From Gammaproteobacteria bacterium (GTDB lineage: Bacteria; Pseudomonadota; Gammaproteobacteria; G965209235), in assembly GCA_965209235.1 (NCBI GenBank), contig OZ242382.1, positions 490,403 to 554,402 on the forward strand: 64,000 nt of DNA, given 5' to 3'. Positions 4,180 through 25,919 of this stretch are shown here, in pieces. Under the pieces are notes generated by a model. It saw only the letters and a program-made list of their open reading frames with translations. It was not told the origin of the DNA and made no database searches. The translations under genes and the position numbers were made by a program. The stretch's first letter is position 1. Every line of letters starts with the position of its first letter.

Positions 4180-4683
4180 CTAGCGGGCCGCTGGCGTCTC
4201 AGTCATTGGGACTGGGCCTAGTATTTGCACGACTTGCGCGAAGAACGCAGCGAGTTGGTCATCCGTGAGTGATCGCGCCCGAGCGAGTTGACGCCCTTTG
4301 GTGATGAACAGCAGTCGCCCGTCAGGATCCAACACCGCAATCGAGGGAATCCCGTTAGATGCGGCATTCTCGTACTCAGCAGCGAAATCCATGTTGTTAT
4401 CCCACCGGCCGATATCGACTTTGTGGTACACGAAGTTCTGTTTCATCACGCCGCTGAGCGGTTGCGTCGTCAAGCTATCCGCAAGCTTGCGGCAGTCTGG
4501 GCACCAATCGGCACCGAAAATGAGCAACGCGCGCACGCCCTTCTGTCGGGCGTCTTGCAACAACACGTCACGCGCTTCACGCGCGTCCACGGCTGGATCA
4601 TAGATCGGGGTTGATTGAAGTTCGTTGGCGGTTGCAGCAGCACTGAGGCATGCCAAAATCACGCCGAAAGCGGTTCCCCGCAT
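4180..4683 (-). CDS. Secreted thioredoxin-fold protein (CxxC motif WCPDC)
   Basis: It has an N-terminal signal peptide and the thioredoxin active-site-like ADWCPDC; it is 167 aa. Confidence 0.7.
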   Translation of the reverse strand: MRGTAFGVILACLSAAATANELQSTPIYDPAVDAREARDVLLQDARQKGVRALLIFGADWCPDCRKLADSLTTQPLSGVMKQNFVYHKVDIGRWDNNMDFAAEYENAASNGIPSIAVLDPDGRLLFITKGRQLARARSLTDDQLAAFFAQVVQILGPVPMTETPAAR

Positions 4684-4711: not shown

Positions 4712-5269
4712 TTATGTACTAGCCGTGGTTTTGGTGCTCCGTTTCCACACTAGATCAGTTTCAAATGCGGGTGCATCACGTCCATGTTCCACCAGTCGCT
4801 CTAGCGACATACGCATGACGGGAAACGCGAGTTCGGACCACGGAATCGAATCGTAATCCACAGCTTTCGTATCCAGAGATTCCGGCCCGGGTGCGTGCAC
4901 ATCGTTTTCAACGTCACCGATGAATATGTGATAAATCTGATTGATCTGAGGAAGCGAGACGGAAGTGAACATCCGTAGCTCCGTCACCTTGGCTTTGGCC
5001 TCTTCCCACGTTTCCCGCGCAGCACCTTCTCTCAAGGTTTCGCCGTTTTCCATAAAGCCTGCAGGCAACGTCCACAGTCCATACCGCGGCTCGATGGCTC
5101 GTTTACAAAGCAAAATGCGGCCGTCTGCAAAAAGTGGCAGCGTGCCGACCACGACCTTGGGATTTTCGTAGTGAATTTCCTCGCAAGAGGTACAGCAAGC
5201 GCGTTTGCGGTCATCTCCCTCAGGCACTCGATAGGTCGCCGGAGCACCGCATGATGGGCAAAAACGCAC
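4712..5269 (-). CDS. NUDIX hydrolase with N-terminal zinc ribbon
   Basis: It carries a CPSCG...CTSC zinc ribbon and a Nudix box (GETLREGAARETWEEA). Confidence 0.75.
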   Translation of the reverse strand: MRFCPSCGAPATYRVPEGDDRKRACCTSCEEIHYENPKVVVGTLPLFADGRILLCKRAIEPRYGLWTLPAGFMENGETLREGAARETWEEAKAKVTELRMFTSVSLPQINQIYHIFIGDVENDVHAPGPESLDTKAVDYDSIPWSELAFPVMRMSLERLVEHGRDAPAFETDLVWKRSTKTTAST

Positions 5270-5317: not shown

Positions 5318-7861
5318 TCAGCCAGAATCGACATGGAGGTGATGCGCGGGCAATGGCGGCAACTTCAGGCGCCGCAAATTGGCTGCAGTTAAATCCGGCT
5401 CACAGTCTCGTGCGAAACGCTGCAAAATGGGAGCCAGCTTCAAGTCATCAATCACTGAGATTTCCTGCACCGAATAAGGATGGTTCAGCATGGATCGCTG
5501 ACGCTTGGGACTCACGCCAAACGCCAACCCTTGATCCCACATCGTGCGCGCCCTGTCTTGCGCTTCTTTATAGACTTGCTCAGCAGCGGGGTGGCTGGCA
5601 CCATGTACCCCGCCCTTTCGATTGGTGCTGTGATACTTCAACATGCCGTATTCAGTCATCCGCCGCGGCGCCCGGGACATAGCCAAGATGGCACCGAGGC
5701 CAGTCGTTTGCTTAGCGCTCACCACATGGCGTGGCCACTCCGTGCGGATGATATTTCCCCAAATCCACACGTCATCCGCAGACGGAGAAACGCGCGTAAA
5801 GCGATCCTTGTCCGTGAGAATCTTGTCGCGCAAGAACGCTTCTGGCAAGCGAACCCCCGCTCCACCGGCTGGGATCTCCAAAAAACCCCATACACGTGAA
5901 TCTGCCTTTGGCCATGCTTGATCGATGGCACCTCGCGCAGCAGCCCAAGGCCCCAGTTTGACTTGCTTCGCTATTTCATGATTCCCATGAAGCGCAATAT
6001 GTAATCCCCAGCATGAGACGTCAAGGCAAGACGTGACCATCTCGCCCGCGTTGCCATCCAAGCAACGCGGCATCCATCGCTGTTCATACAAGACGTCATC
6101 ATCGGCCAAGAGAACATCCATGCCGTTGAGATCAATATCACGAGCGGTGTAGTACCACTTACGGTGCGGCCCAATCTCTTCAACAAATCGAATCTCGAGT
6201 CCGCGCGCTTTCTGTGCCACGAGTTCCGCTGGAAGCGTGTCATGCTTGACCGACAGCGGCAACCACAGCAAGATCTTTGCCGGCTTGGGGTCGAGATTCA
6301 TCAGCGACTCAACGACGAGCCAGACATTGCGAAGCCGGTTCGGCATAGCGGCCATCGACACCACGTACGGCGCGCTGGACTCGGATGGATCAGGCAATCG
6401 TTCTCCGCGCTGCGCACTCACAACTAGCCGATCCGACAATCTGGCAGCCGCCCCTTCATGCCACGCATTCATGAACAGCATGTTGCTCTGCCACCACCGC
6501 TTCGGGATGGCCGGCAAAACGAAGCGCGCGCTTCGTGCCAACGTCTCACGCCCAAGCATCCCAGCGCGTCGTGCTGCCATCGCGCGTGGGAGCGGCAGAC
6601 TGTCGACTGCATTCATGTGATGCGCGGGGAGCGGCGGCAGATTGAGACTGCGCAAGTTTGCTCCTGTCAACGACGGGTTGGCGTCGCGCGCAAGGCGCTG
6701 CAACATGGGAGCCAGCTTCAAGTCATTGATGACCGAAATTTCCTGAATCTGATAGGGATGATTCAGCATGGATGCCTGGCGTTTGGGGCTCACCCCAAAC
6801 GCCAAACCCTGATCCCACATCTCTTTTGCCCGCACGATCGACGCCTCATACGTTTGAGAGGCTGCATGTTGATCGCGTCGGAATTGCAAGCCGCTGCGAC
6901 TCATGGGTTGGTATCCCGTCGCATCGTACTGTGTGATGCGACGCGGAAACCGTGCCATCGCGAGCATGGCATCGATCCCATGCGTCACTGCACCGCCCAC
7001 AATGTGGCGTGTCCATTCCGTTTGGATGATGTTGCCCCAGAGCCAGACGTCATCAGCAGACGGCGCGACACGCGCAAAGTGATCCTTATCTGTTAACGTC
7101 TTCTCACCCAAGAATGCCGCAGGCAAGCGCGTCCCCGCGCACCCTGTCGGAATTTCTAAAAATCCCCACGGACGGCCATCTCGCTGAGGCCACGCGTTAT
7201 CGATCGCGGTCCGCAGGTCATCCCAAGGACCAACCTTGACTTGCTTCGCCTCTTCGTGATTCCCATGCAGCGCGATATGAAGCCCCCACAAAGAGATGTC
7301 ATAGCACGACGTCACCATCTCACCAGCTTGCGCCTGAAAACAGGGAGACAAAACACGCTGTTCGTACACCATGTCATCATCGACCAAAAGAACATCCATA
7401 CCGTTGAGATCAATATCACGCGCAGTGTAGTACCACTTGCGGTATGGTCCAATCTCTTCGACGAACCGTATCTCAAGACCACGCGCCTGTTGCGCCACGA
7501 GTTCGGGTGGCAGAGCGTCATGTTTCAACGATAACGGCAACCACAACAAAATGCGCGCTGGCTTCGGGTCTAGGTTCATCAACGATTCAATGGTTAGCCA
7601 AACGTTGCGAAGCCGACTTGGCATTGCGGCCATCGATACCACATACGGCGCGTTGGTCTCTGACGGATCTGGCAGGCGCTCGCCGCGCTGCGCGTTCATG
7701 AACAGTCGATCCGCCAATCGCGCAGCATTGCCTTCGTTCCACGCATTGACGCACAGCAAGTTGTTCGTCCACAACGCAGTTGGAACAGCTGGCAAGAGAG
7801 AGCGCGCGCTTCGCGCCGTCATCTCGCGGACAACCCTGCGAACGTGTTGGATGTTCATCAC
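5318..7861 (-). CDS. Putative GT-A-like (DXD/DDD) glycosyltransferase-family protein; in-frame head-to-tail fusion of two ~420-aa paralogous units
   Basis: The two halves are ~80% identical. Each has YVVSMAAMP.RLRNVWL..ESLMNLDPKPA.ILLWLPLS, EIRFVEEIGP.RKWYY and DVLL.DDD. Residues 428-847 begin with an internal Met (MAARRAGM; ATG at 6580 on the minus strand). A 4-bp ATGA overlap joins it to the upstream gene. Confidence 0.6.
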   Translation of the reverse strand: MMNIQHVRRVVREMTARSARSLLPAVPTALWTNNLLCVNAWNEGNAARLADRLFMNAQRGERLPDPSETNAPYVVSMAAMPSRLRNVWLTIESLMNLDPKPARILLWLPLSLKHDALPPELVAQQARGLEIRFVEEIGPYRKWYYTARDIDLNGMDVLLVDDDMVYEQRVLSPCFQAQAGEMVTSCYDISLWGLHIALHGNHEEAKQVKVGPWDDLRTAIDNAWPQRDGRPWGFLEIPTGCAGTRLPAAFLGEKTLTDKDHFARVAPSADDVWLWGNIIQTEWTRHIVGGAVTHGIDAMLAMARFPRRITQYDATGYQPMSRSGLQFRRDQHAASQTYEASIVRAKEMWDQGLAFGVSPKRQASMLNHPYQIQEISVINDLKLAPMLQRLARDANPSLTGANLRSLNLPPLPAHHMNAVDSLPLPRAMAARRAGMLGRETLARSARFVLPAIPKRWWQSNMLFMNAWHEGAAARLSDRLVVSAQRGERLPDPSESSAPYVVSMAAMPNRLRNVWLVVESLMNLDPKPAKILLWLPLSVKHDTLPAELVAQKARGLEIRFVEEIGPHRKWYYTARDIDLNGMDVLLADDDVLYEQRWMPRCLDGNAGEMVTSCLDVSCWGLHIALHGNHEIAKQVKLGPWAAARGAIDQAWPKADSRVWGFLEIPAGGAGVRLPEAFLRDKILTDKDRFTRVSPSADDVWIWGNIIRTEWPRHVVSAKQTTGLGAILAMSRAPRRMTEYGMLKYHSTNRKGGVHGASHPAAEQVYKEAQDRARTMWDQGLAFGVSPKRQRSMLNHPYSVQEISVIDDLKLAPILQRFARDCEPDLTAANLRRLKLPPLPAHHLHVDSG

Positions 7862-9057
7862 GTATGAAGTCGGTTGATAGCGTGTTGGTCCATTATCGTA
7901 GGGTCGCTTTGCGCAAGCTTTCCTAGGATTTCAGTCAATTGGAAGTGTTGAATGACGCGCCACTCAAACAATTGATAGGGGCGGTCAAGAAGATATTCCA
8001 ATCGTTCGTCCGACAGGCGAAGCGCTTGTTGGTCCACGAGATACATCCGCGCGGTGCTTGCCGTCTCTTTGAGATCCACCCCCGCCATGAGCTCTCTGCG
8101 CTCGAATTCTTCGCGTGTCTGCATCCCCATCGGAGCCGCAAAGGCAGCCTTGGCATACTGTGCGATCCGAGGGAGCCACCGCACATGCGCCATGGCATGC
8201 TGGCCAGGGATCTGAGGCTTCGGCAGCGTCACCCGCTCGACACCCAGCGCCGTCAAAGCGCCCCACATCCACACGTCAGCGCCATACGGCGTGGTGCGCA
8301 AAAACGCGTCCCTATCGCAGGTGTGCGGGTCACGCAAAAATGGCATGGGATACCGCGGACACAAGCCACCCACCGGAAGATGTAAAAACGACAACGGCTG
8401 CGTCCCCCACCGTTCCTTCAGAATGGCGCCCAAATTAATGCCGTGCATGCGACCGCCTACCGAAGGCGTCACGTCCATCGCATTTGCTGCAACAGTGAAA
8501 GCGTAGCTGCCATAGTCATGGTAGAAAAAGGCGCACTTCCCAGCTTCGGCGCCAATCATGGGCTGCATGGCTTGCGAGCAGTACAACAAGTCGTCATCAG
8601 CGGTGACGACATCAAGGTCACCCCATTCTTGATCGCGTGTCAAGTAGTACCACTTGCGATGCGGGCCGATCTCTGGCACATACCGGATGATGAGGCCTTG
8701 TTTTGTGCACGCGTCCATCTCCGCTGGGAGACGAATATCTTTGTAGCGTTCGTCCAACCAAAGCACCACCGCTTCGGGACGAGGCGTCAAACGCAGGAGC
8801 GAATGAATCACAAGCGGCAATGCTGCGTATTTTTCTGGCAACGCAGCAATCGATACGAAATACCGATTGCCAGCAGCCGCCGTCTGGGATGTGACATCGG
8901 GCTGACGGCTTTGCCGCTCGTGATGCGCCGCGACGCCTTCTTCGTACACATTGCGCACCATGCGCCATCGCCGCGCGGGGGTGCCGAGCATCGCTTCCAA
9001 CGCCGGACGCATACCTAAGGCCATCAGGGCACGCAACCGGCCCACGGTATCGTTCAT
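7858..9057 (-). CDS. Paralog of the GT-A-like DXD family (single unit, ~35% identical to the 5318..7861 units)
   Basis: The motifs YFVSIAALPEKY...VVLWLDE...IIRYVPEIGPHRKWYY...DVVTADDD are present, and the C-terminal region is conserved. It is translationally coupled to both neighbours by 4-bp overlaps. Confidence 0.6.
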   Translation of the reverse strand: MNDTVGRLRALMALGMRPALEAMLGTPARRWRMVRNVYEEGVAAHHERQSRQPDVTSQTAAAGNRYFVSIAALPEKYAALPLVIHSLLRLTPRPEAVVLWLDERYKDIRLPAEMDACTKQGLIIRYVPEIGPHRKWYYLTRDQEWGDLDVVTADDDLLYCSQAMQPMIGAEAGKCAFFYHDYGSYAFTVAANAMDVTPSVGGRMHGINLGAILKERWGTQPLSFLHLPVGGLCPRYPMPFLRDPHTCDRDAFLRTTPYGADVWMWGALTALGVERVTLPKPQIPGQHAMAHVRWLPRIAQYAKAAFAAPMGMQTREEFERRELMAGVDLKETASTARMYLVDQQALRLSDERLEYLLDRPYQLFEWRVIQHFQLTEILGKLAQSDPTIMDQHAINRLHT

Positions 9058-11270
9058 ACGGCAGTATCCAATAGCGAAACAGTCTCGGCTGAGAGAGGCA
9101 CCGAAGACTCGGCAAACAATTGTGATAGTGTGCGCGCCAACCCAAAGTGCTTGATCACCGCGAGTTCTTGGAGTTGGTAGAGATGCCCCAACATATCGTC
9201 TCGCAGGCCGCCGCTAACAACAGTGTCAGTCCATGATTGGAGAGCGTCCTCCCTCTGCACCTGATCGAAACCCGGAATGGTGCGCAGCTTCTGACGCTCT
9301 TGCGGCGCCACCGCCGATGCACTGGCATGCAACGACTGTTGTGACCGAATCCTGTGCGCCGTGCCCAACGCTGGCAGTCGCTCGAGACTGTGCTCCTCCA
9401 ACGACAGCATCCGGTCTTGGTTGCAGCCTAGCCACGTCGAGTTCGCGCCAGTCGCGAGCCGCGCTCCCCACATCCATCCATCATCGTGGAGCGGTGCCAC
9501 GCGCCGGATCGCCTCGATATCACAGACGGCTCGGTCTCTCAAAAAGCTCATGGGATACATCACGCCGTGGTTATGCGTTTGACGAATCAGCCACGGCCAC
9601 GGGAGCCCTGTTCGGTCTGGACCGAACGATGACGAGGCATATTGCAGCCAGTGCGGCCGGGATGGTCGTTGATCCGGTGAGAGCGTCACCCCTCGTTCTG
9701 CGCAGGCCAAGTGAAGGGCCCACGGCACCCAATTGCCACTGGCAAATCGCATCTCATCAGGCTCACCACTCAGAAGAGGCGCCAAATCTTGCGGCTCATA
9801 CAACACGTCATCGTCGACCACCAAGACGTCCATATCGCGCAGTGCCGGATCACCGGTGACGCTGTACCACTTGGTGTGAGGCCCAACGTCCGGGACGTAG
9901 CGTACCACCACGCCATGCGAGGACAACGTGCGAATTCCGGCTGGCAACGGTTCGTGCCTCATGCGCTCATCCAACCAAATGAATACACCCGCGGGGGCCG
10001 GATCTAAGTCACACAGCGCCATCGCGATGGCGTCCAACATCCCGTATCGTGAGGGCACGCTCGTCAGCGAAACCACGTACGGTCTTGCGCGCGTTCGCGT
10101 CGGTGCCGTTGGGGTCGGTCGCCGTATCTGGCGAGCGCGAATGTTCATCAGATGCTTTGCGCAAGACCGCCCGGCCCATGGACGCGCCAACCGCTCGCGC
10201 TGAGGTGACCCCGCAGGACATGCGGCCGCAGCTAACCGAAGTGGTGCCGCTGCCAATCGCGATGCACCAAACAGCACGATGTCTGAGAGGTGTTGCGCTG
10301 GCGTTGTGTTTGGGCCGGTGGGTTGGTCGGCCGGCCGCATCATGAATGCTGAAAACAGCTCGACGACGTTTGCACCGCAAGCCATCCGCCACTCTTCAAT
10401 CACAGTCGGAACACCCAAGGTGTCCATCGCGATCCGGCCCGCGATATTGACGGGGCGGGATAACAAGTCATGAGCGAGGGCGGACGAAACCCACGGATAC
10501 ACCTCACTGTCCCAGGCCAGATCAGATGCCGTGATAGCGGCTACGGGCGGGGCCTGATCACCGGCCACCAACTCCGGAGTCACAGGAATGCCTTGCGAGA
10601 CGACAGTTGCCCACAGCCACGCGTGCATCTCGTCGTCTGTGGCATCACCTGCGTGATCCGCCAAAGCCGTCGCCATAAGCCCGCAGACCTGATGCGGCAC
10701 TCGCACCCCCTGCGTGCAAGACGGAAACGTCATCCATCCCCAGTGAGGATCGTTGTCATCCAAGGCGGCCGCTGACCGCCGCAGATGTTTCGCATCCACA
10801 TCGGGCTGCAGTTGCCGGCCACTGCTCAACTGTGCTGTTTGAGTCGCCAACACGACACCCCACAGCGACACATCACTCGTGCGAAACCCAGCATGGCCAT
10901 CAGGCATGCTCATCAGTGCGGCGAGCGCACCTGCGATATCTAAGGGTTGGTCGGTCAGTTGCACCAAGACCAGATCACCCTCGTGACCCTGCGTCCGTTC
11001 GCTCAGATGCCGCCATGTATCGACCCAACGATCGCTGGCACCGTCGATCCACTCAACACCCGCACGGCCAGTGCGGTCCTCGGGAGGGCTACGCGAACCG
11101 CCCTCTGTTTGAGTCATGGCGATCACACGATCTGGGAAAGAAACCGCAGCATCTCGACGCCACGCATCGAGTGATTGTCGAATGGCCGTGTCGCGGCCGC
11201 GTAGAACAAGAACGGGTGGCGACACGATGCGGCAGAGCCTCTGAAAGCTCGCCACTTGGGGCGATTGCAC
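9054..11270 (-). CDS. Paralog of the GT-A-like DXD family with ~380-aa N-terminal extension of unknown function
   Basis: The C-terminal half carries YVVSLTSVPSRY...VFIWLDE...VVRYVPDVGPHTKWY...DVLVVDDD. The N-terminal extension has no recognisable motifs, and the true start is uncertain because only 47 bp separate it from the divergent gene. Confidence 0.55.
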   Translation of the reverse strand: MQSPQVASFQRLCRIVSPPVLVLRGRDTAIRQSLDAWRRDAAVSFPDRVIAMTQTEGGSRSPPEDRTGRAGVEWIDGASDRWVDTWRHLSERTQGHEGDLVLVQLTDQPLDIAGALAALMSMPDGHAGFRTSDVSLWGVVLATQTAQLSSGRQLQPDVDAKHLRRSAAALDDNDPHWGWMTFPSCTQGVRVPHQVCGLMATALADHAGDATDDEMHAWLWATVVSQGIPVTPELVAGDQAPPVAAITASDLAWDSEVYPWVSSALAHDLLSRPVNIAGRIAMDTLGVPTVIEEWRMACGANVVELFSAFMMRPADQPTGPNTTPAQHLSDIVLFGASRLAAAPLRLAAAACPAGSPQRERLARPWAGRSCAKHLMNIRARQIRRPTPTAPTRTRARPYVVSLTSVPSRYGMLDAIAMALCDLDPAPAGVFIWLDERMRHEPLPAGIRTLSSHGVVVRYVPDVGPHTKWYSVTGDPALRDMDVLVVDDDVLYEPQDLAPLLSGEPDEMRFASGNWVPWALHLACAERGVTLSPDQRPSRPHWLQYASSSFGPDRTGLPWPWLIRQTHNHGVMYPMSFLRDRAVCDIEAIRRVAPLHDDGWMWGARLATGANSTWLGCNQDRMLSLEEHSLERLPALGTAHRIRSQQSLHASASAVAPQERQKLRTIPGFDQVQREDALQSWTDTVVSGGLRDDMLGHLYQLQELAVIKHFGLARTLSQLFAESSVPLSAETVSLLDTAV

Positions 11271-11317: not shown

Positions 11318-11989
11318 GTGTCATATCCGTCGTCGTACGAAATCGCACACTACATACCGGCGACCGGCCGGCTGACGCTGAGACGGCCGCTCACGCCTGA
11401 CTTACTCCGAACCAATGTTCTGGCAGCCATTGATCAACCCGCAGCCCCCGATACGCTCCGCCGAGGCTCAGTCCTCGTCGGGTTGTATGAGTCCTCTCTG
11501 GGAACGGAAGTCGTATACGTGGAACGGTCCAAGGAACTCCCGCGGCACGGCGGTGAAGTCGCTTTTCCGGGCGGTCACTTTGAAGAAGGCGACCATGATC
11601 ACTGGGCGACGGCACTTCGCGAAGCGCACGAAGAAGTCGGCCTTGATCCGAAACATGTGGAGCCAATCGGCACGCTTCCGCCAATCGTCTCACGCTTTGG
11701 CACATCCGTTATCCCGTGCGTCGGTCGCTTGTCGAAAGACGCCTCATGGCATGTTGCCAGTGATGAGATCGCGTTTACGTTCTCCGCACCCCTTGATTGG
11801 CTGGCCTGCAACCTTGGCATCGAACACGATGAGTTTGAGGTCGAGGGCGAAACGTGGCGTGTCCCCGTTTGGCCGTGCGGAGGTCACCGCATTTGGGGAC
11901 TGACGGCCATGATCACCGTTGAACTATTACGTCTTGGGTACGGGATTGACCTCCCCTATCAATGGCGCCCACGCACCCTCGGAGGCTGA
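11318..11989 (+). CDS. CoA pyrophosphatase-type NUDIX hydrolase (NudL-like)
   Basis: It has the [16 protein letters not shown] signature (the NudL family HxGxVxFPGG motif) followed by a Nudix box (REAHEEVGL). Confidence 0.8.
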
Positions 11990-11991
11990 CC

Positions 11992-12522
11992 ATGCTGTAT
12001 TCACTGGATGGACGCGAAGTCAATATCGCAGGACCAAGAGTGTGGGTCGCGCCAGACGCGACCGTTCTTGGCAAAGTCACACTGCATGAAGGAGCCACGG
12101 TGTGGTTTGGCGCCGTGCTTCGCGGCGACACCGAAGAAATCACGATTGGACCGGACACCAACGTCCAAGACTTGTCAGTGGTGCATACGGACATCGGCTT
12201 CCCCACGACGCTGGGACGCGGAGTGACCGTGGGCCATCGCGTGGTGATTCATGGCTGCACAATCGGCGATTACAGCCTCATCGGCATTAACTCCGTTGTC
12301 CTCAACGGCGCCAAGATTGGCAACGAATGTCTCGTAGGAGCACACAGTTTGGTGACAGAAGGGAAATCTTTTCCGGACCGTTCGCTCATCATGGGGTCGC
12401 CTGCCAAGGTCGTTCGCCAGCTCACCGATGCCGAAGTCGAGAATATCCGCAATTCCGCTGCGCACTACTCGCAAAACGGGCAGCGATTCGCGGCAGGCCT
12501 GCATGAGACCGCAACTCCGTAG
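11992..12522 (+). CDS. Gamma-class carbonic anhydrase-like / hexapeptide-repeat protein (YrdA/PaaY family)
   Basis: It shows left-handed beta-helix hexapeptide repeats. A GGAGG RBS sits 8 bp before the ATG at 11992, and the ORF-track start at 11962 overlaps the previous gene. Confidence 0.8.
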
Positions 12523-12552
12523 AATCTGTGGCCAAATCCCCCGATTTCCCTC

Positions 12553-13272
12553 ATGATTAAACGCGTTCCTTACAAGCACGGCAACCTGCAGTGCACAGGA
12601 TATTTCGCCCCTTCTCCATACGGAGGCAAACAGCCCACAGTGATCTGCGTGCATGCGTGGAGTGGGCTTGACGATTTCGTCATTTCCAAAGCCGAACGCA
12701 TCGCGCGTGAATACGGCTACAACGCTTTCGCCATCGACATGTTTGGTGATGGCAAAAATCCGCAATCCGTCGAAGAAAAGATGTCGGTCCTCAAACCTTT
12801 CCTCGATGGGCGGAAGCTCACAAGAGACAGGGCGAAGGCTGGCATGGATGCCATGATCACACACGCAGGCGACCAGATCGATACCGACCGTATCGCTGTG
12901 ATGGGGTATTGTTTTGGTGGCATGGTGGCCCTCGAATTCGCACGCAGCGGCGCGGACATTCGCGCAGCCGTCGCCTTCCACGGATTAATCCAGCCTGGCG
13001 CTGACGTCCCCGCCGCCACAGACATCAAAGCATCCGTCCTCGCGCTCAACGGCGATGCCGACCCCATGGTGCCCGTCGAAAGCGTGATGAGCTTTATGGA
13101 AGAGATGAATGGTTGCAACGCAGATTGGACGTTGATCAACTACGGCAACGCTGCGCATTCCTTTACGTTCCCGACAAACTACGATCCTGAAAATGGTCAC
13201 GCCTATGACCCCGTGATCACCGAGCGTTCATGGAGAGCCATGGTGGACTTGTTTGAAGAACGCTTGAGCTAA
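12553..13272 (+). CDS. Dienelactone hydrolase family protein
   Basis: It has DLH-family architecture: ICVHAWSGLDDF, a nucleophile elbow (GYCFGG) and a C-terminal His. Confidence 0.8.
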   Translation: MIKRVPYKHGNLQCTGYFAPSPYGGKQPTVICVHAWSGLDDFVISKAERIAREYGYNAFAIDMFGDGKNPQSVEEKMSVLKPFLDGRKLTRDRAKAGMDAMITHAGDQIDTDRIAVMGYCFGGMVALEFARSGADIRAAVAFHGLIQPGADVPAATDIKASVLALNGDADPMVPVESVMSFMEEMNGCNADWTLINYGNAAHSFTFPTNYDPENGHAYDPVITERSWRAMVDLFEERLS

Positions 13273-15910: not shown

Positions 15911-17211
15911 AACACAGCACCAAGCCGTTGCTGATCGCAAAGTTCGGCGGCACCTCCATCGCTTCGCAGCGCAAAATGCGCCGCGCAGCGGACGTCATCC
16001 ATGACCTCAAACATGATCATGAAGTCATCGTGGTGGCATCCGCGATGGGTAAGCGAACGGACCGTCTCATGGCCTTGGCGCAGACGATCCACCCTGATGC
16101 GCCATTGCGTGAAGTTGACAGATTGCTGTCGACGGGGGAGCTCGAAAGTTGCCCCCTCCTCACGATGGCGCTGTGCCGCATTGGCGTGAACGCCCAATCA
16201 CTCAGTGGCGCCGAAGCTGGCATCGTCACGAGTAGTGATCACGGGGCTGCGGTCATCTCATATCTCGAAGGCGAAGGCCTGAAGCGCGTGCAAGTCCTCT
16301 TGCAATCAGGCATCACACCGGTCATCGCGGGATTTCAAGGTCGGAGCGAAGACGGAAATGTGACCACACTGGGCCGCGGCGGGTCCGATATCACCGCGGT
16401 CATGCTGGGACACGCTTTCAAAGCTGATGAAGTTCGCATCTACACCGATGTGGATGGCGTCATGTCAGCCGACCCACGGATGATCAAAGACGCGCAAGTC
16501 AAGCCATCCTTGACGACCCTGGATATGCGCACCATGGCGGATGCCGGCGCACAGGTTCTTCACCCGCGTGCTGCCAGCCTGACCGAGCGGCAGAAATTGC
16601 GGGTCCGCATTCAGCCGGTGAACAAAGATGCCAAAGGCACGGTACTGGTGAGCGATGTCTTAGGCGAGCCTCAACCTGGGCGCGCAACCGCCGTGGTCAG
16701 CGACATGTCACATGTCCTTTTGACTGCGAAAGACTTGGCGCATCACCCGACCACCAATCATGTGCTCCTAGATGCACTTGCGTGCATAGACGTGACGCCT
16801 ACGATGTTTGAATGTCAAGGCCATGCCAACAGTGACCTCGCGACTGCGACGTTTCTCATCAAACGGGATGATGAACGCAAAGCGATGTCGATCCTCAACG
16901 AGATGGCCGCGCAGGAGCCAGGCAAGCTAGGGACACCTGCATTCCAAACGGAACACAGCGTGGCCACCGTTACGGTCGTCGGTGACATGACGAATGGAGG
17001 AGGGCAAGCACTGCGCACCGCAACCTCCGCGCTGGCATCAGAGCACGTGTTACCGCGCCTGATGACGAGCACTCACCGTCAACTGACCATCGTGGTTGAT
17101 GATGCGATCGTCAATCGAGTCGTGACCGCGCTGCATCAGGCCTTCGGGTTGTCTGAACGTGAATCAGACAAACAAAGTAGACTAGTACTGACGTCAGGAT
17201 CTCGCGCCTGA
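15907..17211 (+). CDS. lysC: Aspartate kinase
   Basis: It has KFGGTS, GRGGSD and C-terminal ACT domains, and overlaps alaS by 4 bp. Confidence 0.93.
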   Translation: MKHSTKPLLIAKFGGTSIASQRKMRRAADVIHDLKHDHEVIVVASAMGKRTDRLMALAQTIHPDAPLREVDRLLSTGELESCPLLTMALCRIGVNAQSLSGAEAGIVTSSDHGAAVISYLEGEGLKRVQVLLQSGITPVIAGFQGRSEDGNVTTLGRGGSDITAVMLGHAFKADEVRIYTDVDGVMSADPRMIKDAQVKPSLTTLDMRTMADAGAQVLHPRAASLTERQKLRVRIQPVNKDAKGTVLVSDVLGEPQPGRATAVVSDMSHVLLTAKDLAHHPTTNHVLLDALACIDVTPTMFECQGHANSDLATATFLIKRDDERKAMSILNEMAAQEPGKLGTPAFQTEHSVATVTVVGDMTNGGGQALRTATSALASEHVLPRLMTSTHRQLTIVVDDAIVNRVVTALHQAFGLSERESDKQSRLVLTSGSRA

Positions 17212-17214
17212 CAC

Positions 17215-17304
<90 letters not shown>

Positions 17305-17420
17305 AGTGATCACATATTCAACAACCACACCCCCTCGCTGACACGCTCGATGGTAGCGCGCACGTACCCTTGCACACTGCGAGATAAACTTGCGGTTACG
17401 CCATCAGATGCACGGTCGCC

Positions 17421-18323
17421 TTGGAGCACTTCGTCGCCAGAATCTCACTGGAATCTCTCGAACGATTTCTTGAAACGATTGAAGGTAACTTTCTCATATA
17501 CCTCACCGCGGCTCTCTTCTTGCTCGAACTCGTGCGTTATGGAGTCAAGAAACGACTGAGCGCCAGCCTGATTGGTGATAGCTTGGCCAACGGTGTGACC
17601 TTTATGGTTTTTGGCGTGATCACGTATTTCGTGATCGGAGCGTTTTATGTCTCAGGTTACTACTGGGCGTGGTCCATTGCCCCCTATTGGCTTGACATCA
17701 CCCCTCTCTCTATCATTGCATGCGTAGTGCTTGCTGACCTTTGCTACTACTGCGAACACCGATTTACCCATCGCGTGAATGTCGCTTGGGCAACTCATAG
17801 TGTCCACCACTCTTCACCACACTTCAATCTCTCGGTGGCGTACAGATTTGGACCGATGGATGCCTTCTGGCCGTTCTTTTTTCATGTACCGCTGGTACTG
17901 ATGGGATTTGACCCTATCTTGGTCCTCGTCTCCGAAGCTGTCGTGCAGGCCTATCAGACATGGCTTCATACCGAGGCCATCGGAAAGTTACCGCGGCCGG
18001 TGGAGTTAGTGATGAACACGCCGTCGCATCATCGCGTGCATCACGCGCGGAATCCGCAGTACATCGATAAAAACTATGGTGGTATCTTCATCATCTGGGA
18101 CAGACTCTTCGGCTCTTTCGCGAAAGAGGGAACTGAGGTTGACTATGGGCTTGTGAAGTCCATTCATAGCATCAATCCCGTGAAAATCATGTCTCATGGA
18201 TTTTCTCAGCTAGCTTATGCGTTCGTACGTGCGCAGGGCATTCGAAAACTGAGGTTGCTAATTGGCCCTCCAAGGATGATCACCGACGTGCCTGATCGGC
18301 AGGATTCCATATCAACACAGTGA
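17421..18323 (+). CDS. Fatty acid hydroxylase superfamily / sterol desaturase family integral membrane protein
   Basis: The His boxes HRFTH, HSVHHSS and HHRVHH sit within TM segments. GC is lower (~50%) than the core genes. Confidence 0.8.
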   Translation: MEHFVARISLESLERFLETIEGNFLIYLTAALFLLELVRYGVKKRLSASLIGDSLANGVTFMVFGVITYFVIGAFYVSGYYWAWSIAPYWLDITPLSIIACVVLADLCYYCEHRFTHRVNVAWATHSVHHSSPHFNLSVAYRFGPMDAFWPFFFHVPLVLMGFDPILVLVSEAVVQAYQTWLHTEAIGKLPRPVELVMNTPSHHRVHHARNPQYIDKNYGGIFIIWDRLFGSFAKEGTEVDYGLVKSIHSINPVKIMSHGFSQLAYAFVRAQGIRKLRLLIGPPRMITDVPDRQDSISTQ

Positions 18324-19214
18324 CTTGTGTTCGGGATGCACTCCTGCCTTGAGACGTCGGTGATCCGGTTACAAATCTGTAAGGGAAACGCATAAATGTA
18401 TCGAGATAGTGTGCATCTGCTCACTCCCGGTGCCACCAATTGACTGAAATTAACGCTTGTGCCAGTTATTGGATGTGACCACCAAGTCAGAGCGTGAAGC
18501 GGGTTGTGAATCCCCAAGTTGAATGACTTCCACGCCAAAACCAAAATACGATGTCGAGGCATCCGTGCGGGCATTGCGCCACTCTCAGGCTTGACGAAGT
18601 TCGTCATGTATCTGCTTGTCCACCCAAACCACAACGGATGCATTGAATCCAATGTGTCCGTCAACAGTTTTCCGAGGTGATCATGATCCGTCCGCTCAAG
18701 TTGATGCTCGATGATGACAACGTGTTCCATACCCGCTGCTCTGGCGAAAATGGCCAAAGAGATATCATCGACCGGCTGCTCTGTTTCGATGAGTTCGAGA
18801 TCCACCCCAAAACTACGGGGTGCAGTCAAAGGCCAAGTTTGCCCAGATCGCCCGAAGGTCAACTTTGGCGATCGTTCCAAGCTCGCTCACACTCAAGTCA
18901 GCATACTTGGCATGCGGTTATCGACAAACTCCTCACCCGGTGAAGATATCGACACGATCTCCTTGAGCTATAGCACTCTCGGGTATTGCTCGCTCAGGAC
19001 AGTGCAGCAGGCTCCCGCTGTCTTGCCGGCCAAAGTACAAACGCGAGTGCTCCAGCAAATTCAGCATCTCCTGATGGAGACTCTGCCTTCGTTGAGTGTG
19101 TCATGCGCGAGAGTCCGCAGCTGATGTTTCTCAGATGTACCTATGACGGGAGTGGCGGAAGAGCCTCACAATGGGTCGGTCTTATGAACGCCAAACAAGC
19201 ACCTACCAGACCTC

Positions 19215-20756
19215 GTGCGGCCGATCGCATGTACAGGACATACTCGACCACCGCATATGACTATGGGATTCTCATATTCCCAATTATTGATCTATATACC
19301 CGACAAGATAATGTGTCGGAATCCAATTCACGCTACCGTGATGGAGATGTTGCGCACACGCATCCGTGCGTGTGTCTGTAGGCTGCAGTTACGAGTATGG
19401 TCGGGTTCGCCGATAACAGCAGCCGCGCGCGTCATTATTGCGACATTCGTTGCGGCAGCAGCGCTTCTTGTGTTATTAGAGCCAGTACATACCAATCGCT
19501 CGACCCATGTCACATCGCTAACCGCTGAACAATCCCCAAGGACATTGATGGCCTATCCTCCAGTGTCTGCAGTTCATGCCAAGATGATCCATGGCGTCAG
19601 CCGAATCCTACAGATCAAAGCGTCGTTCTCCGCCAAGCTCCTCGTGATCGCCTCAATGGGCCTAGCTATAGTCACTCTGCTGGTTGCGGCCGGGCCATCG
19701 GGACATTGGCTCTCACTCCTTTGCATTTGGCCAGCAACAGCGGTCGTCGTTGGTGTCGACAGGGCAGAAGGCATTGAAACGAGCTTCATCATATCAGTCA
19801 CGACAATCGCAGTCCTCACAGCGAATGGTCACGCATCTCGCAGTTGGCGGTTGCCCATCGCTTTGGGAGTAGTCTCTTTCGTTGCGGCGCTGATTTCCGG
19901 CAACGTTCTATTTGTGGTCGCGGCATTCACATATCCTTGCGTAGTACTCCTCACCCACCGACATATCCAAGCAGCCGGCCGCGTGGCTGTCTTAGCCGGT
20001 CTAACAGGCATGGCCCTCGCGGCCGTCGACGTGCTCCTCTCGCTCGGGCACTTCTCCTTACTCACAGGCAGACTGGCCTCTGAAAGCCCGCTGGCTTCGG
20101 TTCTCTTTCAAGAGCTCACGGTGACGGGGGTACTGTCTTTCGTGATCTTCCTAGCCGTCGTCCATCTAACACGTGGCCTTTCGCACCAACCGTTGTATCA
20201 AGTCGGATTCGCATTGCTAGCAGTTGGCGGCGCTGACATGCTGGCCTCACCACAACTTCCCTTCACCTTCGTTTTCTCGCTTGGGTGGTTCCTAGTAGCC
20301 GCAGGTGTACTAACCATCATTGCCGCTTCCTCGCGGATGGGCCTTTGGATCGCCAGTCTCGCCTCTGCCGCTATCGCGTTCACGTCCCTCACACTCAACG
20401 CACGCGACTCTCTGTACGCTCGATTCCAAGCCGGACCCGAACAGAGCTTCCGTCTGGTCAAACATCTCTACCGAAACATTCCCACCGGATCCGTCACATT
20501 TTCCTGTGCGGAGTCAACCCCATACGTAAGACCAGACATACAGCGATGGCTCGTGACAGATGTTCTGTCCTTCGAAGAACAGCTTCAGAGCATACAAGCT
20601 GATCGTTCAATCTACATCTGCGCTTCCATGGGACAGAAACTTCACTATGTTAAATGCTCTTACGACGGTGGAGTCGAACCTGCAGTCCTACCTGCAGATA
20701 CCTTAGCGCGTCTCGAAGACAAAGCCGGTTCGTGCCTACCCATCAAGTTGAGATGA
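19215..20756 (+). CDS. Polytopic (~10 TM) membrane protein with ~130-aa C-terminal soluble domain; function unknown (Wzy/ligase-like topology possible)
   Basis: A long ORF with many hydrophobic helices. The likely true start is an internal Met near 19341 (MEMLRTRI...). Confidence 0.5.
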   Translation: MRPIACTGHTRPPHMTMGFSYSQLLIYIPDKIMCRNPIHATVMEMLRTRIRACVCRLQLRVWSGSPITAAARVIIATFVAAAALLVLLEPVHTNRSTHVTSLTAEQSPRTLMAYPPVSAVHAKMIHGVSRILQIKASFSAKLLVIASMGLAIVTLLVAAGPSGHWLSLLCIWPATAVVVGVDRAEGIETSFIISVTTIAVLTANGHASRSWRLPIALGVVSFVAALISGNVLFVVAAFTYPCVVLLTHRHIQAAGRVAVLAGLTGMALAAVDVLLSLGHFSLLTGRLASESPLASVLFQELTVTGVLSFVIFLAVVHLTRGLSHQPLYQVGFALLAVGGADMLASPQLPFTFVFSLGWFLVAAGVLTIIAASSRMGLWIASLASAAIAFTSLTLNARDSLYARFQAGPEQSFRLVKHLYRNIPTGSVTFSCAESTPYVRPDIQRWLVTDVLSFEEQLQSIQADRSIYICASMGQKLHYVKCSYDGGVEPAVLPADTLARLEDKAGSCLPIKLR

Positions 20757-20821
20757 AAGCGCACTCCCGGCCGTATAGCAGCATGCTGGCGCTCGCTGAT
20801 CCAGTCAAGGAAACTCTTTAG

Positions 20822-22060
20822 ATGTGGCTTAAACGCAAGTTAGACCAGTTACGCCACCAGCGACCGGCTGACATTGGATATCGGTTGTGCGTATGTGGCA
20901 TTCTGGTACTTGGATCTTTAACCATGACCATCCATAGTTCAACACAGCCGTCTCTTGCGAGCCAAGCTCACGCAGACGGGTTCCTATATCTCTCGATTGC
21001 GACCAATATCCTTGAAGGTCATGGCGCGACAGCCTCCGGCAATGGCTCGACAGATACTTCTCTCCGCCATCTCAACCGTTGGCCGGTTGGATACCCGTTA
21101 CTCGTCGCTGCGATCGCGGGAGCCACAGGCACGTCTACACTGGCTGCAGCCAAGATCCTTGGTGCCGTTGCGCTGTGCCTCGCCGGCGGTATATTGATTT
21201 TCGCGCTCGGACGCACAACACCTTGGGTTGCGCTGACGTTACTGATGTACTCCAGTGTGTTTGCATTCTCCAAGGCCGGTACCGAAGGCGTACTTGTGAC
21301 CGCGCTGATTCTTGTAGCCTTCTTGACCTGTAAGACACTGCATAGATCGGGACGCCAACTTCATTTTGCGCTCGCGATGCTTGGCGTATCCATTTATATC
21401 GCATTCCTACTGCGGTATCACGGTGCGTTCGCACTGTGCACTCTGTTGTTCCCATTCATCGAGGCACTGCGAGATCGACGGCACATCGACGCCATTGCCA
21501 CCGTCGCCGTTGGGTTCGTTGTCCTCTTGGCAATGGTTAGTTATTGGGCTGTTGCATCCTTGTTCGGCAGCTCTACCGGTCACCCTGAACAGACAGCCGT
21601 CTTGATTGATGTGGATTTTCAATACATCCCCCAAATGTCTCAACAGGTCATCAACATTATTCGCCAGCAGACGATGATCCTCCCATGGCAGCCCTGGGCA
21701 AGAGCTCAATGGCTGACCTTGGCTATTCCACTCTTTGGCCTCTCACTTTCCAGCATATGGCAATGGAAACGCGGCGAGACGCCGACAGCATTCTTCCCTT
21801 TGACCAATCTTGGAAACATCTTGGTTTTTCTGGCAGGCTGCTATATCGTGAGCATAGTGTTCGCAAGTTCCGTTCTGCACTTCGACGCACTCAATTACCG
21901 CTTAATGATGCCAGCATCCTGTCTGCTGATGCTCGGCGTCTTGACTTGGTGCGCACGCAGTTCGCGATGGTTAGCTATCTTCGCTGGATGGCTCGCCGTC
22001 TCCATGGCTGGCCTGACATCTTACTGGGCCGCTGTGGAGTCAATTGCCTTTACTGGCTAA
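20822..22060 (+). CDS. GT-C fold glycosyltransferase (ArnT/PMT family 39/83-like)
   Basis: The N-terminal first-loop motif DGFLYLSIATNILEGHG matches the D..Y...A...G pattern of PMT_2/ArnT-like enzymes. It is followed by multiple TM helices. Confidence 0.6.
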   Translation: MWLKRKLDQLRHQRPADIGYRLCVCGILVLGSLTMTIHSSTQPSLASQAHADGFLYLSIATNILEGHGATASGNGSTDTSLRHLNRWPVGYPLLVAAIAGATGTSTLAAAKILGAVALCLAGGILIFALGRTTPWVALTLLMYSSVFAFSKAGTEGVLVTALILVAFLTCKTLHRSGRQLHFALAMLGVSIYIAFLLRYHGAFALCTLLFPFIEALRDRRHIDAIATVAVGFVVLLAMVSYWAVASLFGSSTGHPEQTAVLIDVDFQYIPQMSQQVINIIRQQTMILPWQPWARAQWLTLAIPLFGLSLSSIWQWKRGETPTAFFPLTNLGNILVFLAGCYIVSIVFASSVLHFDALNYRLMMPASCLLMLGVLTWCARSSRWLAIFAGWLAVSMAGLTSYWAAVESIAFTG

Positions 22061-22379
22061 CTTGATGATGACGCTGACTAACCAGAGGAACCGGCGGGTC
22101 TGTTGACGCATGAATGCGCACGGGAAGCAAGAGTAGTGACTCGAAAGCCTCCTAGAGTTGAAACGGCTCACTTAGACAGGTAGGCGTCTTTCATCCATGT
22201 GTAGAAGGAGTTTGGATGAATTGCCACTGCCTGACTTGCTTCTCTTCTTGCAAACGAATCATCGTGGCCCACAAAAGAACGGTATCGCTCCCGGAGAGTT
22301 CCTTAAGCATGTCGTCAGCTGAGCGAGGGAAAATGTCCGGAAATCGCCGATGACGTATCGGGAAGAATGTCGATACAGG

Positions 22380-22721
22380 AAGTGTGTGGCTTTGGAGCCA
22401 CTGGGGAGCGGTTTACTGCACCATCCGTGTGATTCCTTTCAGGTCCGATATATCCCCAATACCTTTGCGGAACTATCCATCGAAATCAATCAGAAAACGG
22501 GACATACCCTCGTGTTCGCGTTCGAAAAATATCGGTTGATGGCAAGATCTGGATCGCATCCTTCACCTCAACCCCATCTGGCACGTTACCAATCTGTCCG
22601 TACGAACATAAGTGGTACGGCTGCCTATAAGCAAGGAATGATCACATGCAAATAATCTCGGATCACCCAGTGATTGGCCCGCCCACAGTGCCTGAACAGG
22701 AGCATATTGGCGCTCGGTCAT
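22380..22721 (-). pseudogene. Degenerate remnant of a GT32 (DXD) glycosyltransferase paralog
   Basis: The minus-strand translation gives MTERQYAPVQALWAGQSLGD, then after a frameshift EIICM*SFLAYRQPYHLCSYGQIGNVPDGVEVKDAIQILPSTDIFRTRTRGYVPFSD*FRW. This is collinear with the N-terminal 150 aa of the intact paralogs at 23784..24716 and 24769..25680, but carries two in-frame TGA codons and at least one frameshift. Confidence 0.7.
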
Positions 22722-22760
22722 AGCCATACCAATCACCGGCGATGATGTCGCAAACGGACA

Positions 22761-23771: not shown

Positions 23772-23783
23772 GTGAACACTATC

Positions 23784-24716: not shown

Positions 24717-24768
24717 TTGTCACGCACGGGGCTGCGATTGCATTTGGGCAGATTCTGACGCTTGCATG

Positions 24769-25680: not shown

Positions 25681-25919
25681 CTGGTCACAGGTCTTAACGT
25701 GTGATTATGGCATAGCCCTGCGACCTCATGAAACCCTCTAGGCAAATAACTTCCCATCTCGCTAGTCAGCCGTGTCGCCCGCATCATTCAAGAGCACCCT
25801 CAATGCCAGTGATTGGGTCGTAATCCACCCGCAAGTCACGGAAATCTGAATCGTATGCGCCGCTTCCAAGAGTCGACATAAGAAAATAGTAGGCATCCAC
25901 TACTTGAGGACGACGTCAC

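Follow-up and report, generated by a model that had tools for sequence, protein, structure and literature searches.

Three consecutive genes were present on the minus strand of the 64,000-nucleotide stretch of gammaproteobacterial DNA analyzed here (hereafter the window), as the earlier note had described: gene 1 (5318-7861, 847 aa), gene 2 (7858-9057, 399 aa), and gene 3 (9054-11270, 738 aa when read from the GTG at 11270), all taken from the list of open reading frames. The gene 2 product is identical to the database protein P0001. Gene 3 was identified with P0003, and its start is uncertain, as the database version begins at 11225 and comprises 723 aa. The ATGA overlap claimed for each junction was observed between gene 3 and gene 2, where it spans 4 nt, but the gene 2/gene 1 junction reads GTGA or, with the database start ATG at 7858, becomes a 1-nt TGATG overlap. 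The three genes are translationally coupled and have the layout of an operon. A NUDIX hydrolase gene with an N-terminal Zn ribbon (4712-5269, minus strand; Pfam/NCBIfam) lies 48 nt downstream of gene 1; the terminator scan found no terminator-like site between the two, and no signal in the promoter/terminator scan exceeded the shuffle expectation. This gene may be co-transcribed with gene 1.

The three overlapping genes hold five copies of one unit, four intact and one degenerate. The four intact units are homologous, are ~400 aa long, and each carry the YVVS..P.R, WL, GP..KWY, and DDD motifs that had been noticed previously; units of different genes show 29-31% identity (BLASTP E 1e-29 to 1e-48). 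In gene 1, the first unit (6581-7861, minus strand, aa 1-427) has VVSMAA at 7625-7642, DDD at 7373-7381, DDVW at 7040-7054, and its tail at 6719-6733, and the second unit with the stop codon (5318-6580, minus strand, aa 428-847) has DDD at 6095-6103, DDVW at 5762-5776, and its tail at 5441-5455; the internal Met with which the second unit begins (MAARRAGM) is residue 428 and is encoded by the ATG at 6580, as reported. The single intact unit of gene 2, also on the minus strand, shows DDD at 8590-8598, A-D-V-W at 8263-8277, and the tail VIQHF at 7942-7956. The intact unit of gene 3, delimited by alignment (9057-10259, minus strand, aa 338-738), contains VVSLTS at 10059-10076, DDD at 9807-9815, DDGW at 9471-9485, and the C-terminal tail VIKHF at 9144-9158. 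The region preceding it, thought to be an N-terminal domain of ~380 aa with no recognizable motifs, is instead ~335 aa long and holds the fifth unit (10482-11015, minus strand, aa 86-263), which was detected with hhalign and hmmsearch and checked in a residue table. Against the unit profile, residues 86-263 scored 32.4 bits in hmmsearch, whereas none of 2,000 shuffles exceeded 10.3 bits, and the N-terminal region matched the unit in hhalign with an E value of 2.7e-4. The match starts with the DXD strand and ends with the D-D-x-W helix, with TDQ (10947-10955) replacing DDD and DEMHAW replacing ADDVW. This profile match, in which DDD is replaced by TDQ, identifies the fifth copy as degenerate, and it is presumably catalytically dead. 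No transmembrane segments were found in any unit, and the best explanation is that the window proteins are soluble or peripheral cytoplasmic.

The flanks of the operon are housekeeping in character (purL, Trx-like, NUDIX, CoA pyrophosphatase, gamma-CA-like, DLH, and alaS), and no flippase, polymerase, ABC exporter, or sugar-nucleotide genes adjoin it; two GT32-like genes, three pyruvyl transferase genes, and two polytopic membrane ORFs occur elsewhere in the window. The GC content of the region is 58.7%, compared with 58.7% and 58.0% in the flanks and 56.9% in the whole window, and its GC3 of 0.63-0.65 equals that of purL and alaS. Thus, the low GC content previously suggested (~56% against ~63% in the flanks) was not confirmed and no GC anomaly exists, and a hint of horizontal transfer was rejected. 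A secreted effector, an idea prompted by the small contig and the conserved C-terminal tail, was likewise discarded, as the window carries an ordinary free-living Gram-negative gene set in which no secretion genes were seen, and a genome may be larger than its contig.

The close relatives of these units are the six proteins P0001-P0006 (seven intact units), all encoded on one 1.47-Mb contig; five units lie in the window, and three more paralogs (P0004-P0006) lie elsewhere on the contig. No closer relatives turned up among 15 billion proteins, GTDB representatives, or JGI metagenomes. When gene 2 and the subfamily alignment were each compared with 5.8 billion clusters by a word-indexed search, the hits were limited to same-contig proteins and one weak 279-aa match, and scans of genome contigs and of metagenome contigs with the subfamily alignment returned nothing. 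All seven intact units share helical extensions at both ends, of ~60 aa at the N terminus and ~110 aa at the C terminus, which are confined to the six proteins of the contig and are of low to medium model confidence and without a known counterpart; a search of all window ORFs with them returned the glycosyltransferase units alone. The gene-family expansion is real and was seen in this one genome only. The view that four-fold amplification is itself unusual was overstated, as the identity of only ~30% between units of different genes is normal for a glycan locus with several glycosyltransferases of the same family. The unusual features here are the genome-restricted subfamily, the extra terminal segments, and the dead copy in gene 3.

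An exhaustive HMMER search recovered 4,219 relatives at E<=1e-3, and at 50% identity the wider family forms over 4,000 clusters, consisting of uncurated proteins of ~290-310 aa with the consensus VSLTSxPxR ... ILWL ... GPHKKYY ... VTxDDDxxYP ... TGVxGVLYPP ... PxADDxWL. Their sources name these relatives glycosyltransferase family A/2 proteins, and fusions to GT2, GT4, GT8, methyltransferase, or acyltransferase domains occur among them. Homology with the window units extends over profile positions ~65-290, with E values down to 1e-36, and includes the invariant G, K, DDD, and D-x-W; G121, K135, D154-156, D261, and W263 are invariant or nearly so across the family and retained in all seven intact units, and DDD is invariant both in these seven and in the 114-sequence alignment. 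As in the window, some members have two units, and members are found in O-antigen or capsule loci; that of Aeromonas caviae lies inside an O-antigen/capsule cluster, directly upstream of a Wzx flippase. However, the window subfamily is only 20-30% identical to the members, lacks their occasional Pfam GT2 match, and has the two private terminal extensions.

The assignment to a GT-A fold, proposed in the earlier note, was borne out by both structure and profile comparisons. With the 114-sequence alignment, the AlphaFold model of gene 2 reached a pLDDT of 74 overall and above 90 at residues 60-180 and 230-280 (a model from a 4-sequence alignment, with a pLDDT of 41, was discarded), and it shows a beta-alpha-beta topology in one Rossmann-like alpha/beta/alpha domain built around a central mixed beta-sheet, in which the DDD directly follows strand 4 (residues 149-153). 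The top Foldseek hits were GT-A glycosyltransferases throughout; at similar Z, the structural neighbors included the retaining enzymes KfiA, EXTL2, MGS, and GpgS and the inverting enzymes GlfT2, HAS, and SpsA, and other GT-A neighbors included the protein-directed UGGT. The family profile matched KfiA (5z8b) and PmHS2 (8vh7) with E ~7e-6, and the S..S.P.R, K, and DDD..YP motifs were aligned; the match to KfiA is limited to profile positions 53-160, the N-terminal, nucleotide-binding half. By contrast, a single window protein, gene 2, gave nothing but noise in phmmer against PDB sequences, with no hit better than E 0.3. KfiA of E. coli K5 and the GlcNAc-transferase domain of the Pasteurella heparosan synthase PmHS2 belong to CAZy family GT45. 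Of the GT2, GT8, and GT32 neighbors that had been expected, neither GT8 nor GT32 was the nearest solved relative, which was instead KfiA (GT45), and GT2 was touched through 52 of 114 distant relatives, which match Glycos_transf_2 (PF00535) at E<=0.01. The units could not be placed in a named family, as stated before: no unit of the three window proteins reached any threshold in Pfam or NCBIfam, and PF00535 (gathering cut-off 23.3 bits) gave no match even at E<=1. As PF00535 was found in the relatives and not in the window proteins, the link to Pfam GT2 is only transitive; compared with the GT2 enzymes SpsA, GlfT2, and hyaluronan synthase, the window units lack a transmembrane/channel domain and the QxxRW motif. 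They also differ from KfiA and the PmHS2 domain, with ~12-13% identity and similarity in the nucleotide-binding half only, in their additional N-terminal (~60 aa) and C-terminal (~110 aa) helical segments, and in the lack of a heparosan-type gene context around the operon. KfiA is an alpha-UDP-GlcNAc transferase, and PmHS2 is a DxD-containing, Mn2+/Mg2+-dependent GT-A enzyme (PMC2811250).

On this basis, we proposed that the genes probably encode soluble or peripheral GT-A glycosyltransferases that build an envelope glycan stepwise, and that these enzymes are very divergent, related to KfiA (GT45), and at the edge of Pfam GT2. The N-terminal Rossmann-like half would bind the nucleotide-sugar via S69, R/K76, and K135, and the invariant DDD would chelate the diphosphate and Mn2+ or Mg2+, a predicted metal dependence; the sugar would then be transferred to an acceptor bound in the C-terminal half, with its G233 loop and D261/W263 helix. 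The four intact units may successively add different sugars or linkages to the envelope glycan, for which lipopolysaccharide or an O-antigen-like, capsule, or exopolysaccharide repeat unit is a candidate, and the dead N-terminal unit of gene 3 may serve as a structural partner. Stepwise multi-specificity and an envelope-glycan target appear most likely, although the assignment of the acceptor is a guess, since the housekeeping flanks contain no flippase, polymerase, exporter, or sugar-nucleotide genes.

The acceptor might instead be a protein, a membrane lipid (ornithine lipid or glycolipid), or a small molecule, with the terminal extensions recognizing the target. The location of the operon outside any classical polysaccharide locus, the solubility of the proteins, the extensions unique to the seven units and found nowhere else in the window, and the presence of the small-molecule enzymes MGS and GpgS and of protein-directed UGGT among the structural neighbors are all consistent with this; however, distant relatives reside in O-antigen/capsule clusters and are fused to polysaccharide-type glycosyltransferases, the window contains further envelope-glycan genes close by, and no candidate acceptor gene is linked. 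We consider a non-polysaccharide acceptor unlikely. It is quite improbable that gene 1, possibly with genes 2 and 3, alternately adds two sugars to form a long polymer, in the manner of PmHS2, PmHAS, KfoC, or KfiA/KfiC. Two intact GT-A domains do occur in the single gene 1 chain, two-unit proteins recur in the wider family, and KfiA and the PmHS2 GlcNAc-transferase domain are the closest solved relatives, but known bifunctional synthases such as PmHS, PmHAS, and KfoC join domains of two different glycosyltransferase families, whereas the gene 1 domains are 70% identical paralogs and gene 3 pairs a dead and an intact unit of the same family. Nor was the capsule-locus context of such synthases found, as no UDP-sugar dehydrogenase, Kps-type ABC exporter, or KfiB/KfiC-like partner adjoins the operon.

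The two halves of gene 1 share 69-70% identity at the protein level and 72% at the DNA level, less than the ~80% that had been estimated, and their comparison gave a dS of 1.33 and a dN/dS of 0.17. These values show an old fusion, with purifying selection acting on both halves; the earlier suggestion of a very recent tandem duplication or an artefact was therefore not supported, the more so as the deposited annotation carries the same fusion (P0002, 846 aa) and two-unit proteins make up 12 of 269 sampled members of the wider family. A sequencing or assembly error, with two separate ~420-aa genes in the true genome, might be suspected from the Met retained by the second unit at 6580, from the spacing of only ~7 codons between it and the end of unit 1 homology, and from the fusion being known from one genome, without an independent copy for comparison. 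Such an error is nevertheless highly improbable, as a collapsed repeat is excluded by the difference of 28% of nucleotides between the halves, the 3' ends of the two units are separated by indels and several substitutions rather than one base, the frame is open throughout, the deposited annotation contains the fusion as well, and gene 3 is an independent second case of a two-unit protein, in addition to the two-unit relatives elsewhere. It is also highly unlikely that the units are not glycosyltransferases but GT-A-like nucleotidyltransferases of the IspD, GlmU, or RmlA type or another enzyme of the same fold; neither the N-terminal G-x-G-(T/S)-R nucleotide loop nor a best structural match to such enzymes was found.

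Beyond stepwise glycan building by the individual units, a decidedly speculative and doubtful extension is that the six-gene subfamily, with seven intact units and one dead unit, forms a hetero-oligomeric glycan-assembly machine, in which the tails would dock the paralogs and the dead domain would act as a scaffold, producing a glycan exclusive to one deep-branching Gram-negative lineage that is unsampled. The analogues would be the active/inactive GT-A pairs of the eukaryotic glycosaminoglycan polymerases EXT1-EXT2 and CHSY3-CHPF, for which the likeness is in architecture only and the bacterial context differs.

Taken together, neighboring "hypothetical" genes that escape both Pfam and NCBIfam encode a set of GT-A glycosyltransferases, and a large uncurated family thereby gains a concrete annotation, linked to KfiA/GT45 and to the edge of GT2. 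The enzyme type and its likely job in cell-surface glycan building are ordinary, and the general understanding of glycosyltransferases is unchanged; the fused active/active and dead/active pairs may be useful for studying the pairing and divergence of GT-A domains. For the source organism, the five units, the three further paralogs, and the nearby GT32-like and pyruvyl-transferase paralogs suggest that it invests heavily in a surface glycan specific to its lineage.

The ORF list bore out three consecutive minus-strand genes, transcribed in the order gene 3 (9054-11270, 738 aa), gene 2 (7858-9057, 399 aa) and gene 1 (5318-7861, 847 aa), and BLASTP between the units supported the core observation of the earlier note that all three genes share one unit, here delimited at ~400 aa. 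The units of different genes are 29-31% identical (E 1e-29 to 1e-48), and the four units have in common Y66, V68, S69, P74, W100, L101, G131, P132, K135, W136 and Y137, as well as D154-156, Y159, D261, W263 and a C-terminal Y..E..VI....L motif. The genes had been described as joined by 4-bp ATGA overlaps; this holds at the gene 3/gene 2 junction (GTATGAAC), where a genuine 4-nt ATGA overlap is present, but not at the gene 2/gene 1 junction (ACGTGATGAAC), where the overlap is GTGA if gene 1 starts at GTG, or 1 nt with the ATG at 7858, the start used in the deposited protein (P0002, 846 aa). The deposited gene 3 protein (P0003, 723 aa) likewise starts at 11225 and not at 11270. A scan of the operon revealed no promoter or terminator signals above shuffle expectation, and no transmembrane segments were found in any unit.

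The proteins of the three genes had zero matches in Pfam and NCBIfam, and a single-sequence PDB search returned only noise. An exhaustive HMMER search of 1.84 billion representatives with a four-unit profile retrieved 4,219 proteins at E<=1e-3, 2,014 at E<=1e-10 and 8 at E<=1e-30, most of them ~290-310 aa in length and aligning to profile positions ~65-290. The consensus of this broad family reads VSLTSxPxR ... ILWL ... LP..L ... GLEIR ... GPHKKYY ... VTxDDDxxYP ... TGVxGVLYPP ... PxADDxWL; in an alignment of 114 sequences, G121, K135 and D154-D156 were invariant, and S69, R76, P94, P111, Y159, D260, D261 and W263 were at least 90% conserved. Pfam Glycos_transf_2 matched 52 of these 114 members at E<=0.01 (best 2.5e-7) and none of the window's units. 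The relatives are named at source "glycosyltransferase family A protein", "family 2 protein", "glycosyltransferase" or "hypothetical", and in many of them the same chain also bears a GT2, GT4, GT8, methyltransferase or acyltransferase_3 domain. The 114-sequence profile also reached KfiA of Escherichia coli K5 (5z8b) and the Pasteurella heparosan synthase PmHS2 (8vh7, 8viw) at E ~7e-6, with S..S.P.R, the conserved Lys and DDD..YP aligned with KfiA.

AlphaFold modelling of gene 2 was unusable with a 4-sequence alignment (pLDDT 41); the 114-sequence alignment raised the model to pLDDT 74 and pTM 0.73, with ten-residue blocks over residues 60-180 and 230-280 at pLDDT 87-98. The model is laid out as beta-alpha-beta-alpha-beta-alpha-beta, with DDD directly past the strand 149-153. 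The predicted GT-A fold was supported by the Foldseek top list, which consisted almost entirely of GT-A glycosyltransferases (HAS, PcManGT, UGGT, RmlT, KfiA with a TM of 0.62 on target, GpgS, WrtF and TarP), and neither a non-glycosyltransferase fold nor an annotated non-glycosyltransferase family emerged. Retaining and inverting enzymes scored about equally in structure, favoring neither stereochemistry for the units.

The units are thus very probably GT-A glycosyltransferases. In the best-supported model, which as a whole we consider reasonably likely, each intact unit would be a soluble or peripheral, metal-dependent enzyme whose N-terminal half (S69, R/K76, K135) would bind the nucleotide, whereas the metal and diphosphate would be bound by DDD154-156, as in KfiA and PmHS2, and the acceptor would be held by the C-terminal half through the G233 loop and the D261/W263 helix. 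PmHS2 is a DxD, Mn2+/Mg2+-dependent GT-A enzyme, and KfiA is an alpha-UDP-GlcNAc transferase (PMC2811250). Less likely rival explanations are that the units form a co-polymerase like PmHS2/KfoC, that they are glycosyltransferases acting on a non-polysaccharide acceptor, that they are nucleotidyltransferases, or that the gene 1 fusion is an artefact. Under the preferred model of an envelope-glycan assembly line, the units would act in sequence on the glycan and tight gene coupling would ensure their stoichiometric co-production; because between-gene identity is only ~30%, they most likely differ in donor, acceptor or linkage specificity. The presence of four units, previously regarded as an unusual amplification, is unremarkable, since several glycosyltransferases of one family in a single locus are normal.

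The two halves of gene 1 had been taken to be ~80% identical and to reflect either a very recent tandem duplication whose stop was lost or an assembly artefact. The second unit does carry its own Met (aa 428, ATG at 6580), but identity between the halves is only 70% for the protein and 72% for the DNA (1,228 nt). Their codon alignment gave pS 0.62, dS 1.33, dN 0.23 and dN/dS 0.17, so the duplication is old and both halves have been under purifying selection. Every family-invariant residue is present in both halves, their 3' ends are set apart by indels and several substitutions instead of a single base, and two long unit matches occur in 12 of 269 sampled family proteins (e.g., P0009, P0011, P0014, P0140 and P0152). 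A collapsed repeat or a recent duplication is excluded; as for the artefact reading, a point error at the junction is conceivable but unlikely.

The ~380-aa N-terminal domain of gene 3, previously credited with no recognisable motifs, matches the unit profile. Residues 1-335 gave a weak ordered match to the unit alignment in hhalign (E 2.7e-4, aa 106-243 to unit positions 158-295), and an HMM built from the seven aligned subfamily sequences scored residues 86-263 at 32.4 bits, whereas 2,000 shuffled versions of that sequence gave at most 10.3 bits. The match spans the strand preceding DXD through the helix following D-D-x-W, with TDQ (10947-10955) in place of DDD and DEMHAW in place of ADDVW; the nucleotide-binding N-terminal half and the C-terminal tail were undetectable. 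This match, with its change of DDD to TDQ, indicates that gene 3 is a fusion of a predicted dead unit with an intact one, and hence that the operon holds five units.

The six best matches of the exhaustive search were the proteins of gene 2 (P0001), gene 1 (P0002) and gene 3 (P0003) and three single-unit paralogs encoded outside the window, P0004, P0005 and P0006 (405, 381 and 420 aa; E 1e-38 to 1e-49); all six are singleton clusters on one 1,473,301-bp contig (NCBI/ENA), and the next-best library protein had E 7e-36. Catalytic-type residues are kept in all seven intact units. Two helical segments are also common to these units: a basic one of ~60 aa at the N-terminus, and one of ~110 aa at the C-terminus whose end reads Y..QE..VI.HF.L...L..LA....P.LT (final ~40 residues at pLDDT 79-92 in the gene 2 model). 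Both segments are missing from the ~300-aa relatives and from all other ORFs of the window. The subfamily alignment retrieved nothing beyond known members from a word-indexed collection, and nothing further from 185,579 GTDB species representatives or 241 million JGI metagenome records. The GTDB representatives evidently do not include the window's genome, a scan of them with its AlaS found no close species, and housekeeping proteins scored far under NCBIfam equivalog cut-offs (aspartate kinase, 300 vs 402 bits; PDH E1alpha, 278 vs 411 bits). The source therefore appears to belong to a lineage that has been poorly sampled; a Porin_4 porin, the PstSCAB/PhoU/PhoR genes, PdxJ and a thioredoxin-like protein of periplasmic type point to a Gram-negative.

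The reported contrast of ~56% GC in the operon with ~63% in its flanks is absent: the region has 58.7%, as does the left flank, compared with 58.0% in the right flank and 56.9% over the whole window, and 5,953-bp windows range from 52.7% to 59.1%. GC3 is 0.63-0.65 in genes 1-3, vs 0.64 in purL and 0.63 in alaS; nothing in composition suggests a recent foreign origin. Housekeeping genes lie on both sides of the operon: downstream on the minus strand, a Zn-ribbon NUDIX hydrolase (4712-5269, 48 nt past gene 1), a thioredoxin-like protein (4180-4683) and, beyond it, purL; upstream and divergent, a CoA-pyrophosphatase-type NUDIX (11318-11989), a gamma-carbonic-anhydrase-like hexapeptide protein, a dienelactone hydrolase and alaS. 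Two GT32-like transferases (23784-24716, 24769-25680) lie within 10-20 kb, along with three polysaccharide pyruvyl-transferase (PF04230) paralogs (22761-23771, 29363-30463, 30535-31707) and two polytopic membrane ORFs without a family match (19215-20756, ~8 TM; 20822-22060, ~6 TM). The PF04230 genes fall within 9 kb, two adjacent and the first set apart by a 2-oxoacid dehydrogenase E1alpha/E1beta/E2 operon, and none of the three reached an NCBIfam model. At 17001-26000, with tRNA-Ser (17215-17304) at the left edge, a segment of lower GC (52.9% vs 56.9% for the whole window) starts directly after the tRNA gene and may be a glycan island; it contains an OlsE-like fatty-acid hydroxylase, the two membrane ORFs, a pyruvyl transferase and the two GT32-like genes. 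Elsewhere, a full-length bacterial angiotensin-converting enzyme homolog (Peptidase_M2, 710 bits; 35733-37670) adjoins an alkyl-sulfatase-like metallo-beta-lactamase and topoisomerase I.

One distant family member was viewed in its context outside the window, at 11824-12759 of an Aeromonas caviae record (L001). It lies in a classical O-antigen/capsule cluster, directly upstream of a Wzx-type flippase, together with an epimerase, two WecA-type genes, a WbpM-type dehydratase, UDP-glucose dehydrogenase and a GT2. The cluster has a ~9.8-kb duplicated segment (ORFs 8850-11206 again at 18670-20978) beside an IS-type integrase. The record (NZ_AP026896.1, PLSDB "plasmid pKAM479_3", 4.94 Mb, 18 annotated features) is almost certainly a mislabelled chromosome.

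Taken together, the units have a familiar type of fold and chemistry. The novelty lies in a deeply divergent branch undetected by any curated model, with private N- and C-terminal modules, in its growth to seven intact units within a single genome without a close relative elsewhere sampled, and in two fused pairs, one predicted to be active/active (70% identical) and the other dead/active. Clustered at 50% identity, the broad family numbers over 4,000 clusters but has no dedicated Pfam or NCBIfam model, and Pfam GT2, even at E 0.01, reaches less than half of the members sampled. A curated model for this family, tied to KfiA/GT45, would improve its annotation.
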